Below are positions 28,417 through 41,839 of a stretch of 64,000 nt of DNA, one piece after another; position 1 is the first letter of the stretch; every line of letters begins with the position of its first letter. Location: the sequence record MW286157.1; one strand, 5' to 3'. A program made the translations under genes and the position numbers. This DNA comes from Escherichia phage vB_EcoM-BECP11. The notes below the pieces were generated by a model. The model was not told where the DNA came from, ran no database searches, and worked only from the letters and a program-made list of their open reading frames with translations.

Positions 28417-29101
<685 letters not shown>

Positions 29102-30489: not shown

Positions 30490-30562
30490 TGGGAATTAGC
30501 CAAGTTGGTAAGGCACTGGATTTTGATTCCAGGATGCAAAGGTTCAAGTCCTTTATTCCCAG
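30490..30562 (+). tRNA. tRNA-Gln (UUG)
   Basis: Hand-folded cloverleaf: acceptor TGGGAAT/ATTCCCA, anticodon loop TTTTGAT, T-loop TTCAAGT; no encoded CCA. Confidence 0.85.
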
Positions 30563-30563
30563 C

Positions 30564-30650
30564 GCGAGAATGGTCAAATTGGTAAAGGCACAGCACTTAA
30601 AATGCTGCGGAATGATTTCCTTGTGGGTTCGAGTCCCACTTCTCGCACCA
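30564..30650 (+). tRNA. tRNA-Leu (UAA)
   Basis: Acceptor GCGAGAA/TTCTCGC, anticodon loop CTTAAAA, long variable arm, encoded CCA. Confidence 0.85.
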
Positions 30651-30655
30651 AATTT

Positions 30656-30729
<74 letters not shown>

Positions 30730-30739
30730 ATTTAATTTA

Positions 30740-30813
30740 CTCCGTGTAGCTCAGTTTGGTAGAGCGCCTGATTTGGGATCAGGAGGTCCAAGGTTCAAAT
30801 CCTTGTATGGAGA
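30740..30813 (+). tRNA. tRNA-Pro (UGG)
   Basis: Anticodon arm CCTGA-TTTGGGA-TCAGG, T-arm CAAGG-TTCAAAT-CCTTG, acceptor with two G-U pairs. Confidence 0.8.
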
Positions 30814-30815
30814 CT

Positions 30816-30905
30816 GGAGGCGTGGCAGAGTGGTTTAATGCACCGGTCTTGAAAACCGGCAGTCGCTCCGGCGACTCATAGGTTCGAATCCTATCGCCTC
30901 CGCCA
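30816..30905 (+). tRNA. tRNA-Ser (UGA)
   Basis: Acceptor GGAGGCG/CGCCTCC, anticodon loop CTTGAAA, long variable arm, T-loop TTCGAAT, CCA. Confidence 0.85.
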
Positions 30906-30910
30906 GTTTT

Positions 30911-30986
30911 GCTGATTTAGCTCAGTAGGTAGAGCACCTCACTTGTAATGAGGATGTCGGCGGTTCGATTCCGTCAATCAGCACCA
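30911..30986 (+). tRNA. tRNA-Thr (UGU)
   Basis: Acceptor GCTGATT/AATCAGC, anticodon arm CCTCA-CTTGTAA-TGAGG, CCA. Confidence 0.85.
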
Positions 30987-30987
30987 A

Positions 30988-31062
30988 GGCCCTGTAGCTG
31001 GAAGGTTCAAGCAAGCGACTCATAATCGCCAGATGGTGGTTCAATTCCACCCAGGGCCACCA
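30988..31062 (+). tRNA. tRNA with CAU anticodon (Ile2 type as in T4, formally could be Met)
   Basis: Acceptor GGCCCTG/CAGGGCC, anticodon loop CTCATAA, T-arm GGTGG-TTCAATT-CCACC, CCA. Confidence 0.75.
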
Positions 31063-31074
31063 AATTATGAATTA

Positions 31075-31161
31075 GGGGAGTTATCCCGTAGAGGTAGCGG
31101 TGTGGACTGTAAATTCATTGTCATTGCGACTCGGGTGGTTCGACTCCATCACTCCCCACCA
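31075..31161 (+). tRNA. tRNA-Tyr (GUA), type II
   Basis: Perfect acceptor GGGGAGT/ACTCCCC, anticodon loop CTGTAAA with U33 and A37, long variable arm with 3 bp stem, CCA. Confidence 0.7.
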
Positions 31162-31165
31162 ATTT

Positions 31166-31240
31166 GGATGTGTAGCTCAATGGCAGAGCGATCGCCTGTT
31201 AAGCGATTGGTTATAGGTTCGAATCCTATCACGTCCGCCA
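31166..31240 (+). tRNA. tRNA-Asn (GUU)
   Basis: D-arm GCTC/GAGC, anticodon arm ATCGC-CTGTTAA-GCGAT, T-arm ATAGG-TTCGAAT-CCTAT, CCA. Confidence 0.8.
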
Positions 31241-31354
31241 AATTTGTGACAACTGTCACATTAATATCTACTTGACGCGATTATAGGGGTTGAACTGATC
31301 ACTCTTCTCTTAATTTCGTGTGAAGACATCATGATTGTTGGAGTAGGTATTAAT

Positions 31355-31430
31355 GTGGCCGTAGTTCAGTTGGTAGAACTCGAGATTGTGATTCTCGTAG
31401 TCATGGGTTCGACTCCCATCGGTCACCCCA
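31355..31430 (+). tRNA. tRNA-His (GUG) with extra 5' G(-1)
   Basis: 8 bp acceptor including G-1 opposite C73, anticodon arm CGAGA-TTGTGAT-TCTCG, T-loop TTCGACT, CCA. Confidence 0.8.
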
Positions 31431-31434
31431 ATTA

Positions 31435-31510
31435 CGGGGCATAGCTCAGAAGGAAGAGCAAGGACCTTCTAAGTCCTGGGTCGTAGGTTCGATCCCTACT
31501 GCCTCGACCA
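31435..31510 (+). tRNA. tRNA-Arg (UCU)
   Basis: D-arm GCTC/GAGC, anticodon arm AGGAC-CTTCTAA-GTCCT, T-loop TTCGATC, CCA. Confidence 0.85.
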
Positions 31511-36291: not shown

Positions 36292-36728
36292 AAACACTAT
36301 CAGCTGGTATTATCTTTATGACAGAAGATAAAGATTTATTTATGGGTCGGGTTACTGGTTCTCGTAAGCCTGGAATGATGGCACATCGTTGGGATATTCC
36401 AAAGGGCCGTGTAGAAAGTTCTGATTTGAATGCACTGGAAGCTGCAAAAAGAGAATGCTTAGAAGAGACCGGTTTTAGCAATTATAATCCAGACCTTCTA
36501 GAAGACCTAGGTGTATTTAAATATTCTAGTAATAAAGACTTACAGTTATTTTATTATACGATTCCAGTAGAGCATGAGATGTTCAGAAATTGCCATTGCG
36601 AGTCTTATTTTGAAAATAAAGATGGCGTTATGATTCCAGAGATGGATGCTTTTGCTCTTATTCCTCGTACTCAGTGGCAATATGTGATGGGTCCTTCACT
36701 TTACCGAATAATGAACAGCCTCTTTTAA
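36288..36728 (+). CDS. nudE: Nudix hydrolase NudE
   Basis: Nudix box GRVESSDLNALEAAKRECLEETGF; ATGA-coupled start at 36288 (an in-frame ATG 15 nt upstream would give 151 aa). Confidence 0.8.
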   Translation: MKTLSAGIIFMTEDKDLFMGRVTGSRKPGMMAHRWDIPKGRVESSDLNALEAAKRECLEETGFSNYNPDLLEDLGVFKYSSNKDLQLFYYTIPVEHEMFRNCHCESYFENKDGVMIPEMDAFALIPRTQWQYVMGPSLYRIMNSLF

Positions 36729-37259
<531 letters not shown>

Positions 37260-37263
37260 AGTT

Positions 37264-37293
37264 GTTTACTTTCTCCTAGAATTGTGATAGTAT
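37264..37293 (+). promoter_or_regulatory. T4-type early promoter
   Basis: GTTGTTTACT ... TGATAGTAT. Confidence 0.6.
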
Positions 37294-37347
37294 ATTCACA
37301 GTTGCTTGAAGAGACAAATTACTAATTAAAATATTTAAAGGAAATAT

Positions 37348-37821
37348 ATGAAAACATATCAAGAATTTATCACTGAAGCAGCTATTAATTCTCAAATTAT
37401 TGCTGAATCTTTTACTGATCTTTTGAAATTTAAAAAAGGTCAAAAAATCACTGCTGTATTGGATGATGGTACAGAAGTTGAGATGGATGTACAGGGATAT
37501 AATTATGCAGTAGATGGAAAATTGTATAATAAATCTCATGCTAAATTTGATTCATTTGACGACTTTGTTAATACAGTTGAAGATGAAAAAACTCGTCGAT
37601 CCATTGCAACTGGTGATGCTAAGGTTCTTATGGCACATGGTCATGAACGCATTCGCGCTAAACAGAATAAAATGGGTGAAGATAATTTCGCATTAGTTGG
37701 TTATCAATCTGGTAAACAAACTTATGGCTATCAACGTACTGCTACCATGTATAATAAAAATGGTAAAATTGCCTTTGTAAATAGTAAAGGTTCTATTCAG
37801 TACGTTAAATCGTTCAAATAA
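37348..37821 (+). CDS. internal protein (ipII/ipIII locus) with capsid-targeting sequence
   Basis: 157 aa starting MKTYQEFITE-AAINSQIIAE-S; sits after e where T4 has ipIII and ipII, but the size differs from both. Confidence 0.75.
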   Translation: MKTYQEFITEAAINSQIIAESFTDLLKFKKGQKITAVLDDGTEVEMDVQGYNYAVDGKLYNKSHAKFDSFDDFVNTVEDEKTRRSIATGDAKVLMAHGHERIRAKQNKMGEDNFALVGYQSGKQTYGYQRTATMYNKNGKIAFVNSKGSIQYVKSFK

Positions 37822-37958
37822 TATGGGAACAGCCTGGACCTCATTTGAGGTATTCCCGCCAACCTGTGATAAGGTCGAGCCAAAGCGCGGTAATGGGTAA
37901 TGCAGGAATGGACAACTCATGTGCCATGGAATGGCCCAAAAACCTTAAGAGAAATAAC

Positions 37959-38501
37959 ATGAGAACATTTTTAACTGGCCCGTATCTATCCTTGATGAAT
38001 GCTTTTACACACCATTCTGATGCTAGAGTAGAAGAACTCTGTAAGAATGATTATCTTCCACCAATGGAAGATGTGCTCAAACAGTACTGCACACTTCGTA
38101 TAGATGGTGGACGTCAATCCGGTAAATCAGTTGCTGTGACTAACTTTGCCGCTAATTGGCTGTATGATGGCGGAACAGTTATTGTTCTTTCTAATACTTC
38201 AGCTTACGCTAAAATTTCTGCTGGCAACATTGAAAAAGAATTTTCTCGTTATTCTAGCGATGATATTCGATTCCGTTTATTTACTGATTCTGTCCGTAGT
38301 TTTATCGGTAATGAAGGTCATAAATTCCGTGGGTTATCGCTTTCTCGTATCTTGTACATAATTGACGAACCTATTAAAGCTCCTGATATGGATAAGATTT
38401 ACAATATCCATATTAAAACGGTACAACACTGTTGTCGAAGCTATAATGCTGAAACAGGTGAAACAGTTCGTCCTCAATTTTTTGTGATTGGAATGCAATG
38501 A
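37959..38501 (+). CDS. small P-loop NTPase-like protein
   Basis: Walker A-like GGRQSGKS and Walker B-like ILYIIDEP; start uncertain (in-frame ATGs at 37893, 37908, 37926, 37959; track ORF begins at TTG 37845). Confidence 0.5.
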   Translation: MRTFLTGPYLSLMNAFTHHSDARVEELCKNDYLPPMEDVLKQYCTLRIDGGRQSGKSVAVTNFAANWLYDGGTVIVLSNTSAYAKISAGNIEKEFSRYSSDDIRFRLFTDSVRSFIGNEGHKFRGLSLSRILYIIDEPIKAPDMDKIYNIHIKTVQHCCRSYNAETGETVRPQFFVIGMQ

Positions 38502-38827
38502 TGACAGACACACAGCTTTTCGAATATCTCTATTTTTCACCAAAAACTATTAAAAATAAATTGGTGAATCATTTTGAAATTTTAGCAAATAATAACATTT
38601 TGAGCGAATTTTATCCCAAGCAATACAAATTACAAAAAGGCGTATTCAAAGGATGCAGAGTTTTGTGTACTGCTCCTAACGCGCAGTTAATGAATAAAAT
38701 TCCATATTTTACCATGGAATTTATTGATGGACCTTTTAAAGGACTAATCACCCAAAGTTTAATGGCATATGATTCTGAGCCATTTTTAATTAAAGAACAA
38801 TCTTGGATAAATTTATTTTCTAATTGA
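38498..38827 (+). CDS. hypothetical protein
   Basis: 109 aa, ATGA coupling. Confidence 0.55.
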
Positions 38828-38834
38828 GGTTTAT

Positions 38835-39197
38835 ATGAAAGCATATCAAATTCTTGAAGGCACACATAAAGGTACTATTTATTTTGAAGATGGTATTCAA
38901 GCACGAATTATTGTCTCTAAAACCTTTAAAGAGGACTCTTTTGTAGACCCAGAAATTTTCTACGGTTTGCATGCCCGTGAAATTGAAATTGAGCAACAAC
39001 CTACAGTTAAAATTGAAGGTGGTCAACACCTGAACGTTAACGTTCTGCGTCGTGAAACTCTGGAAGATGCAGTTAAGCATCCGGAAAAATATCCGCAGCT
39101 GACCATCCGTGTATCAGGTTATGCAGTTCGCTTTAACTCTCTGACTCCGGAACAGCAGCGCGACGTTATCGCTCGTACCTTTACTGAGAGTTTGTAA
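38835..39197 (+). CDS. autonomous glycyl-radical cofactor (GrcA/YfiD-like) protein
   Basis: C-terminus ...[59 protein letters not shown] carries the RVSGY glycyl-radical motif; 3' half uses host-like CTG/CCG/CAG codons. Confidence 0.8.
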
Positions 39198-39418
39198 TGG
39201 CAAAGATAATTATTGAAGGTTCTAAAGATGTGCTAAATGCTTTCGCCGAGTGGTTTAGTAATTCAGGCGAACAGCAATTTAACGAAGCCTGGAATATGGG
39301 TGATATTGATGGAATTTATCCTACGACAGAAATTTCTGTTCAAGGATATGGCATTCATGAACCTATTCGTTTAGTTGAATATGATTTATGTACTGGTGAG
39401 GAAGTCAAATATGATTGA
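39197..39418 (+). CDS. hypothetical protein
   Basis: 73 aa, TAATG coupling. Confidence 0.55.
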   Translation: MAKIIIEGSKDVLNAFAEWFSNSGEQQFNEAWNMGDIDGIYPTTEISVQGYGIHEPIRLVEYDLCTGEEVKYD

Positions 39419-39677
39419 AGACATTAAAGGTTATAAGCCGCATACTGAAGAGAAAATCGGTAAAGTGAATGCTATCAAAGACGCTGAAGTTCGTTTAGGA
39501 CTTATCTTTGATGCTTTATACGATGAATTTTGGGAAGCATTTGATAGCTGTGAAGACTGTGAATTCGCGAAGAATTATGCTGAAAGCCTCGATCAGTTAA
39601 CTATTGCTAAAACGAAACTCAAAGAAGCCAGTATGTGGGCTTGTCGTGCAGTGTTCCAACCAGAGGAAAAATACTAA
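39411..39677 (+). CDS. acb2: likely Acb2 (Vs.4) cyclic-dinucleotide sponge
   Basis: 88 aa from ATG 39411 with SD GGTGAGGAAG; second gene upstream of regB, the T4 vs.4 position. Confidence 0.6.
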
Positions 39678-39955
39678 TGGCTCAATTAAGTGCAGGGTTT
39701 GGTTATGAGTATTATACTGCACCTCGTCGTGTATCTGCCGCTCCTAAGAAAATTCAAAGTCTTGATGACTTCCAGGAAGTAGTCCGTAAAGCTTTTCAGG
39801 ACTATGCACGTTATCTTAAAGAAGATTCACAGGACTGTCTCGAAGAAGATGAAATTGCTTACTATGAGCAGCGTCTTGAACAGCTCAAAAATCTACATGA
39901 GGTTCGTGCAGAAGTTTCAAAGTCTATGAATAAATTGATTAGATTTAAAGAATAA
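39677..39955 (+). CDS. hypothetical protein (vs.3 position)
   Basis: 92 aa from TAATG-coupled ATG 39677, SD GAGGAAAAA. Confidence 0.55.
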
Positions 39956-39957
39956 CT

Positions 39958-39987
39958 GTTTACTTTTCCTCTTGACTGTGGTATAAT
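39958..39987 (+). promoter_or_regulatory. T4-type early promoter for regB
   Basis: CTGTTTACT ... TGTGGTATAAT. Confidence 0.65.
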
Positions 39988-40014
39988 TTTTCTATCAGTT
40001 AAGAGGAGAATAAC

Positions 40015-40476
40015 ATGACTATCAATACAGAAGTTTTTATCCGTCGAAATAAGCTTCGTCGTCACTTTGAGTCGGAGTTTCGTCAAATTAACAATGAGAT
40101 TCGTGAGGCATCAAAAGCAGCAGGGGTCTCATCGTTTCATCTAAAATATTCTCAGCATCTTCTTGATCGTGCAATTCAACGGGAGATTGATGAGACATAT
40201 GTTTTTGAATTATTCCATAAAATAAAAGACCATGTTTTAGAAGTTAATGAATTCCTGAGTATGCCTCCGCGTCCTGACATTGACGAGGATTTTATTGATG
40301 GGGTTGAATATCGTCCTGGACGTTTAGAAATCACAGATGGAAATCTTTGGCTTGGATTTACGGTTTGTAAGCCTAATGAGAAGTTCAAAAACCCGTCACT
40401 TCAATGCAGGATGGCAATTATCAACAGTCGTCGTTTACCAGGAAAGGCTTCTAAAGCAGTAATTAAAACTCAATGA
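40015..40476 (+). CDS. regB: site-specific endoribonuclease RegB
   Basis: 153 aa beginning MTINTEVFIRRNKLRRHFESEF, recognised as T4 RegB. Confidence 0.85.
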   Translation: MTINTEVFIRRNKLRRHFESEFRQINNEIREASKAAGVSSFHLKYSQHLLDRAIQREIDETYVFELFHKIKDHVLEVNEFLSMPPRPDIDEDFIDGVEYRPGRLEITDGNLWLGFTVCKPNEKFKNPSLQCRMAIINSRRLPGKASKAVIKTQ

Positions 40477-40483
40477 GGTAAAC

Positions 40484-41029
40484 ATGAGAAAAGCACTACT
40501 CGCTGGTCTATTGGCCATTTCTATGATGGCACATAGCTCCGAGCATACTTTCAGTAATGTCCAACTCGATAACATGCGTTACGCGTATCAATTCGGGGAA
40601 CAGTTTTCTAAGGATGGAAAATATAAAACACATCAAAATGTTCATAAGAGTGGATTGGGTCATATAATGGCTGCTATTTTATGGCAAGAAAGCTCTGGCG
40701 GAGTTAATTTAAAATCTAAACCAAAGCATCACGCCTACGGAATGTTCCAAAATTATTTGCCTACTATGCGAGCAAGAGTTAAGGAACTTGGTTATAATAT
40801 GACCGATGCTGAAATAAAAAGAATGTTGAATAAACGGTCCAATTCAGCTTCCTGGGCGTACATTGAACTTTCTTATTGGTTAAATATACATAAGGGCGAT
40901 ATAAGAAAAGCAATATCCTCTTATAATTCGGGATGGAATGTTAAAGCAGGTTCTAAATATGCTTCTGAAGTCCTAGAAAAGGCTAATTACCTTAAAAATA
41001 ATAAACTTTTGGAAATAGTAAATGACTAA
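40484..41029 (+). CDS. secreted SLT-domain (lytic transglycosylase-like) protein
   Basis: Signal peptide MRKALLAGLLAISMMAHS; SLT motifs WQESSGG, YGMFQ, SYNSGWN. Confidence 0.7.
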   Translation: MRKALLAGLLAISMMAHSSEHTFSNVQLDNMRYAYQFGEQFSKDGKYKTHQNVHKSGLGHIMAAILWQESSGGVNLKSKPKHHAYGMFQNYLPTMRARVKELGYNMTDAEIKRMLNKRSNSASWAYIELSYWLNIHKGDIRKAISSYNSGWNVKAGSKYASEVLEKANYLKNNKLLEIVND

Positions 41030-41363
41030 AATTTTGGTTTTATGTATAGGATTAATTTCATTTTCTGCGTTAGCAGATACATCATATACTGAAATTAGAG
41101 AGTATGTAAACCGTACTGCAGCGGATTATTGCGGGAAAAATAAAGCATGCCAAGCTGAATTTGCGCAGAAATTAATATATGCATATAAAGACGGAGAAAG
41201 AGATAAATCAAGCAGATACAAAAACGATACATTGTTAAAACGATATGCTAAAAAGTGGAATACCTTAGAATGTTCAGTTGCGGAGGAGAAAGATAAAGCC
41301 GCTTGTCATTCAATGGTTGACCGTTTGGTAGATTCTTATAATCGAGGATTGAGTACTAGATGA
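41022..41363 (+). CDS. secreted protein at the T4 vs position (identity tentative)
   Basis: 113 aa with signal peptide MTKILVLCIGLISFSALA; placement by synteny only. Confidence 0.5.
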   Translation: MTKILVLCIGLISFSALADTSYTEIREYVNRTAADYCGKNKACQAEFAQKLIYAYKDGERDKSSRYKNDTLLKRYAKKWNTLECSVAEEKDKAACHSMVDRLVDSYNRGLSTR

Positions 41364-41839
41364 TTGTAAAATATATCAAGGGCGATATTGTCGCCCTATT
41401 TCTTCAAGGTAATATTATTGCGCACGGGTGCAATTGTTTTCATACTATGGGTTCAGGTGTAGCGGGTCAATTAGCAAGAGCCTATCCCAAAATTTTAGAA
41501 ATAGATAAAACCACTACTGAGTACGGTTCTCGTGATAAATTAGGCGATATGTCTATTGTTTTTAAACATAAACCTAATGGTTTTGGCATATGTTATAACT
41601 TGTACACGCAATACGAACCAGGTCCTAATCTTGATTATGGTGCTTTAGTAAACTGCATGATAGAATTAAATCTACAGGCAGAAACCCTTTTGTTTAAACC
41701 GGTAATTTACATTCCGCGTATAGGTTGTGGTATTGCTGGCGGCGATTGGGATAAGGTTTCTAAATTAATCGACATGTTTACTCCTGATATTGATTTAATA
41801 GTGGTGGATTATGAAAGTACATTACCCACATCCGTTTGA
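41360..41839 (+). CDS. macro-domain protein (ADP-ribose binding or hydrolase fold)
   Basis: 159 aa; N-terminal GDIVALF...NIIAHGCNCFHTMGSGVAGQL resembles macro-domain nucleotide-binding motifs; ATGA coupling. Confidence 0.65.
   Translation: MIVKYIKGDIVALFLQGNIIAHGCNCFHTMGSGVAGQLARAYPKILEIDKTTTEYGSRDKLGDMSIVFKHKPNGFGICYNLYTQYEPGPNLDYGALVNCMIELNLQAETLLFKPVIYIPRIGCGIAGGDWDKVSKLIDMFTPDIDLIVVDYESTLPTSV

Follow-up and report, generated by a model that had tools for sequence, protein, structure and literature searches.

The 88-codon gene at positions 39411-39677 (+) of the window (by which we mean the whole 64,000-nucleotide stretch of DNA analysed here) is very probably the T4-like (Tequatrovirus) orthologue of acb2, known in T4 as vs.4, and its product would be a hexameric, non-degrading cyclic-dinucleotide sponge directed against CBASS. 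The window is a Tequatrovirus genome; a 24-kb stretch of it has about 97% identity with several E. coli T4-like phages, and a 1.7-kb stretch round vs.4 is 98.9% identical to phage RB14. The exact protein is on deposit as QQM15775.1 of Escherichia phage vB_EcoM-BECP11.

In the initial annotation the Vs.4/Acb2 identity had been guessed from synteny and size, and it could be confirmed by sequence comparison. In a phmmer comparison with the full set of PDB chains, 7UQ2 'Vs.4' scored best (E 3.6e-56), with 86 of the 88 residues identical; this entry, which consists of six chains, carries the Foldseek title 'Vs.4 from T4 phage in complex with cGAMP'. The Pfam model PF24729 (Acb2/Tad1 hairpin) was matched at 71.3 bits (E 7.8e-20), well above its gathering score of 27 bits, and its profile positions 1-58 of 58 were all covered. 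Alignment with both T4 Vs.4 and PaMx33 Acb2 had been proposed as a check of the guess, and similarity was found to both of them: to the latter, 27% identity over 85 residues, end to end, by pairwise BLASTP (E 1e-7), which agrees with the 24% reported between the T4 and PaMx33 proteins (PMC10312549). The PaMx33 Acb2 chains (8H2J, 8IXZ) gave only a weak score in the phmmer search of the whole PDB (E 0.17), and the assignment to the family is therefore based on the match to the Pfam model, on the T4 structure and on the motifs that are conserved. The name in UniRef is 'Acb2/Tad1 hairpin domain-containing protein', and the 90% cluster has 373 members. In PHROGs the product is assigned to phrog_717 with the label 'unknown function'; this library is older than the work on Acb2. 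Proteins of 73 aa were also observed within the 90% cluster of Vs.4 (P0007, P0015), and these would be non-functional or mis-called if it is the N-terminus with Y8 that they are missing.

An AlphaFold2 single-sequence model (pLDDT 77) predicted two long helices, at residues 13-45 and 50-81. The top PDB matches of this model in Foldseek were 7UQ2 and then the Acb2 entries 8H2X/8H2J, which stood before generic helical hairpins, and superposition on 7UQ2 gave a TM of about 0.58. With moderate confidence, the predicted protomer of two antiparallel helices fits the Acb2 family; given the pLDDT of 77 and the TM of 0.58, the evidence from the fold is weaker than the sequence identity of 98%.

The position of the gene is that of T4 vs.4. 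It had been described beforehand as an 88-aa gene standing second upstream of regB, and this was borne out by the reading frame and by the match of the regB product (40015-40476, +) to Pfam REGB_T4 (E 5.9e-69), the latter product being identical to that of T4 in 153 of 153 residues. The one gene standing between them is vs.3 (39677-39955, +), identified as an open reading frame. The gene lies between vs.5 and vs.3, 5' of regB and on the same strand, as is expected of a T4 vs.4 orthologue. In the annotation of RB14 the order is e, Ip4, vs.8, vs.7, vs.6, vs.5, vs.4, vs.3, regB, vs.1, vs, tk.4, and the open reading frames of the window match it one for one; the order from vs.8 via vs.4, vs.3 and regB to vs agrees also with the original T4 record X04567, where the equivalent of vs.4 is ORF 62.5 (88 aa).

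Several features of the neighbouring genes were recorded as well. Two genes upstream of vs.4 stands vs.6 (38835-39197, +), whose 120-aa product is a GrcA-like protein with a glycyl-radical domain (Pfam Gly_radical, E 2.5e-18). The vs.5 product has 73 aa both in the window and in RB14 and only 58 aa in the T4 record X04567 of the 1980s (ORF 62.7); the shorter form arises because X04567 has one C fewer than the window (near 39247), so that the frame is shifted after residue 17, and this indel probably reflects either a mistake in the early sequencing or a frameshift peculiar to T4. Directly between the lysozyme gene e (36765-37259) and vs.8 there is a single gene (37348-37821, +) for a 157-aa internal virion protein (PHROG 3155, E 6e-102), named Ip4 in RB14, which has the same layout. 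We take the corresponding interval of T4, from e to vs.8, to hold ipIII, ipII and denV, in which case denV would be absent from the locus in the window. On the other side of regB, the tk.4 homologue (41360-41839, +; 159 aa) falls into PHROG 335, labelled 'phosphatase' (E 1.4e-71).

The reading frame of vs.4 runs on the plus strand from the ATG at 39411 to the TAA at 39675-39677 and comprises 88 codons. A mechanical list of open reading frames had begun it at an upstream TTG (39375), giving 100 aa, but it is the ATG at 39411 that corresponds to residue 1 (Met1) of T4 Vs.4. Nine nucleotides 5' of this ATG a Shine-Dalgarno sequence GAGG can be read directly (39398-39401, +), and X04567 has an annotated ribosome-binding site in the corresponding position, 7-12 nt before ORF 62.5. 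The start of vs.4 lies within the last codons and the stop of vs.5 (39197-39418, +), so that the two genes overlap by the 8 nt ATGATTGA (39411-39418, +); RB14 shows an equal arrangement of vs.5 and vs.4, and the overlap suggests that their translation may be coupled. At the other border the stop of vs.4 and the start of vs.3 share one base in a TAATG junction (39675-39679, +). Packing as tight as that of vs.5, vs.4 and vs.3 is typical of T4 early genes.

Compared with T4 vs.4, 12 codons differ, 10 of them by synonymous changes and 2 by replacements, with 14 nucleotide differences in all, and this 10:2 ratio points to purifying selection on the gene. From its sequence vs.4 can thus be regarded as a real gene and not a chance open reading frame; it is kept in 1,235 phage records. 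A promoter and terminator scan of 36500-41500 returned 19 promoter-like sites against 17.8 expected, which is no excess over chance, and because of this the transcription unit of vs.4 is taken from the T4 annotation only. The only convincing site in that scan was a promoter-like one at 39959-39987 (TTTACT-17-TATAAT with an extended TG), situated 3' of vs.3 in the spacer upstream of regB. Over 70 nt the vs.3-regB spacer (39950-40020, +) agrees with T4 in every base, and it also contains the regB ribosome-binding site with GGAG.

The residues reported to hold the ligand in Acb2 proteins are present in the window protein. The columns of an alignment of ten sequences of 24-98% identity (T4, RB14, RB51, Phapecoctavirus, Karamvirus, Pseudotevenvirus, Slopekvirus, siphovirus and PaMx33 among them) were invariant at G7, Y8, N20, K23, M75, R79 and P84. 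Both pocket residues of the family are thus found in invariant columns: the Tyr of codon 8 (39432-39434, +), equivalent to Y11 of PaMx33, which would stack on a base of the cyclic dinucleotide, and the Lys of codon 23 (39477-39479, +), equivalent to K26 of PaMx33, which would form a salt bridge to the ligand phosphate. The Phe of codon 82 (39654-39656, +), characteristic of the T4 subgroup and seen in the T4 structure to base-stack on the cyclic dinucleotide, is present too. Mutants described in the literature attach a function to each of these positions. In T4 Acb2 the Y8A substitution abolished dinucleotide binding, and in the F82C escaper binding was diminished, F82 stacking on the ligand (PMC12657218); in PaMx33 Acb2, Y11A likewise abolished dinucleotide binding and K26A the binding of cGAMP, Y11 providing the base stack and K26 the phosphate bridge (PMC10312549).

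PaMx33 Acb2 (p26; 8H2J, 8H2X, 8IXZ; Huiting et al. 2023, Cao et al. 2023/24) belongs to the same Pfam family and is likewise a two-helix hairpin, and its alignment keeps the GY motif, K26 and the C-terminal R..QP motif, although its identity to the window protein is only 24-27%. It differs in that it also binds cyclic trinucleotides, by a kinked-helix pocket with R67 and T74, whereas the window protein has Asp at position 61, which corresponds to R67, together with Thr68; the dual pocket of the PaMx33 type was therefore not found here. T4-Acb2 binds 3',3'-cGAMP with a Kd of about 84 nM and does not bind cA3, a limitation explained by Y37, A57, L60, D61 and T64, which constrict the potential trinucleotide pocket; even the D61R mutant still fails to bind cA3 (PMC10312549). 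These five residues and T68 are identical in the window protein. The window protein is like T4 Vs.4 (7UQ2) in its length of 88 aa, in the place of its gene (after vs.5 and before vs.3, 5' of regB), in the residues Y8, K23 and F82 and in the occluders of the trinucleotide pocket.

Only L44F and N46S separate the two proteins. Both replacements fall within codons 44-46 (39540-39548, +), which according to the list of differences and the helix prediction are situated where helix 1 ends and the hairpin turns. F44/S46 occurs also in RB14 Vs.4 (YP_002854457.1), which shares 86 of 88 residues with the window protein and whose gene overlaps vs.5 in the same way; RB14 has D50 and L52, whereas the window protein and T4 both have C50 and F52, and the allele accordingly looks like a mosaic in which the forms of T4 and RB14 are combined. 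It is conceivable that with the same fold the range of ligands has shifted, L44F and N46S altering the packing of the hexamer or the geometry of the pocket, so that for example the Panoptes decoy 2',3'-c-di-AMP might be avoided or binding of cA3 might be gained. Acb2 homologues are known to differ in their binding range (PMC10312549; PMC12393519), and the sole replacements relative to T4 would have to be responsible. We consider such a shift unlikely, as both positions are at the tip of the hairpin, in the segment (residues ~37-63) which is the most variable of the family in the ten-sequence alignment and carries indels, the reported dinucleotide-contacting and cA3-blocking residues are all unchanged, and F44/S46, being seen in RB14, is a common natural allele. 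A more specific idea, that the mosaic tip changes the hexamer packing in such a manner that the sponge separates CBASS signals from the decoy 2',3'-c-di-AMP better than T4-Acb2 does, is very unlikely in our estimation; if it were true, the F44/S46 sponge would be a natural counter-adaptation to a decoy-based defence.

A different target was also considered, as ten Acb2 homologues have been found to inhibit type I Thoeris (PMC12393519), and the vs.4 product could accordingly be a sponge for 3'cADPR similar to Acb2_43 instead of a CBASS sponge. Tad1 (Thoeris anti-defence 1) and Acb2_43 have in common with it the Acb2/Tad1 hairpin domain and the sequestration of a signal that is not degraded, but their ligands and the construction of their pockets are different. 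Acb2_43 has additional beta strands at both its N- and its C-terminus and makes no use of the Tyr stack; in the window protein Y8 and K23 are conserved, the N-terminus bears the GY motif of the cGAMP type, and the T4 protein, 98% identical, was crystallised with cGAMP. Terminal beta strands of the Acb2_43 type were absent from the AlphaFold2 single-sequence model, a weak result in view of the low confidence of the termini. We have rejected the Thoeris reading, which appears highly improbable, because neither the extra strands nor the different N-terminus were seen. Still harder to believe is that vs.4 is a decayed or unexpressed remnant that has no current function: nothing specific speaks for this apart from the 'hypothetical protein' by which deposited genomes mostly annotate the gene, and the intact full-length frame, the Shine-Dalgarno sequence, the apparent coupling to the neighbouring genes, the conservation across phage records and a substitution pattern that argues for selection all oppose it. 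The pseudogene reading was likewise dismissed, because the frame is intact, a ribosome-binding site is present and the substitutions are mostly synonymous.

As an Acb2 sponge, the vs.4 product would probably work in the way described for T4. T4 Vs.4 is described as a cGAMP sponge, a hexamer with three cGAMP (Jenson et al. 2023, summarised in PMC10449767). By analogy with T4 Vs.4 the window allele should bind nucleotides, and the 98% identity to the six-chain entry 7UQ2 together with the literature makes a hexamer with three pockets likely. In each protomer two long helices would run antiparallel as a hairpin, and six protomers would interlock, as in the T4 crystal structure, to form the hexamer. 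Its three pockets would each be situated between two protomers, at their N-terminal parts, and would take up a single molecule of 3',3'-cGAMP or of a related cyclic dinucleotide. The bases would be stacked by Y8 and F82 and the phosphates contacted by K23, and binding would be nanomolar and take place with no cleavage of the ligand. Such a sponge could hold the signal of the host's CD-NTase below the threshold at which the CBASS effector is activated, and the phage would then replicate. Cyclic trinucleotides such as cA3 would not be expected to bind, as is the case for T4-Acb2.

This gap at cA3 is probably covered by a second protein of the same window. The open reading frame at 28646-29101 (+) encodes a protein of 151 aa which matches the PDB entries 7T26/7T27 'Acb1' (E 1.3e-61) and contains two H-x-T motifs (IHSTI and PHITL); the label of this family in PHROGs is 'RNA ligase'. 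Judged by these matches, the phage is equipped with both known means against CBASS, Acb1 as a nuclease and Acb2 as a sponge, a pair which has likewise been noted in T4. Elsewhere in the window 11 tRNA genes were observed at 30490-31510 (+), for Gln, Leu, Gly, Pro, Ser, Thr, Met(CAT), Tyr, Asn, His and Arg. T4 presumably has eight tRNA genes, and those for Tyr, Asn and His would then be extras of the window.

The sponge may also have its price. Acb2 was reported to be both required and sufficient for the triggering of Panoptes, a system (OptSE/mCpol) which fires once Acb2 removes its decoy 2',3'-c-di-AMP (PMC12657218). As with T4-Acb2, the phage would be made vulnerable to Panoptes by the sponge that should protect it from CBASS; these in vivo phenotypes of the window allele are expected from the work on T4.

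The gene vs.4/acb2 is already known, the allele is present in public databases, and the locus shows no departure from the published picture. The value of the assignment lies in annotation, since it provides an experimentally grounded function for a gene which is mostly labelled 'hypothetical protein' in the deposited T4-like genomes. It also bears on phage therapy and on the prediction of host range, where resistance to CBASS systems that signal by dinucleotides, and sensitivity to decoy systems of the Panoptes type, would be the traits to expect of this phage.
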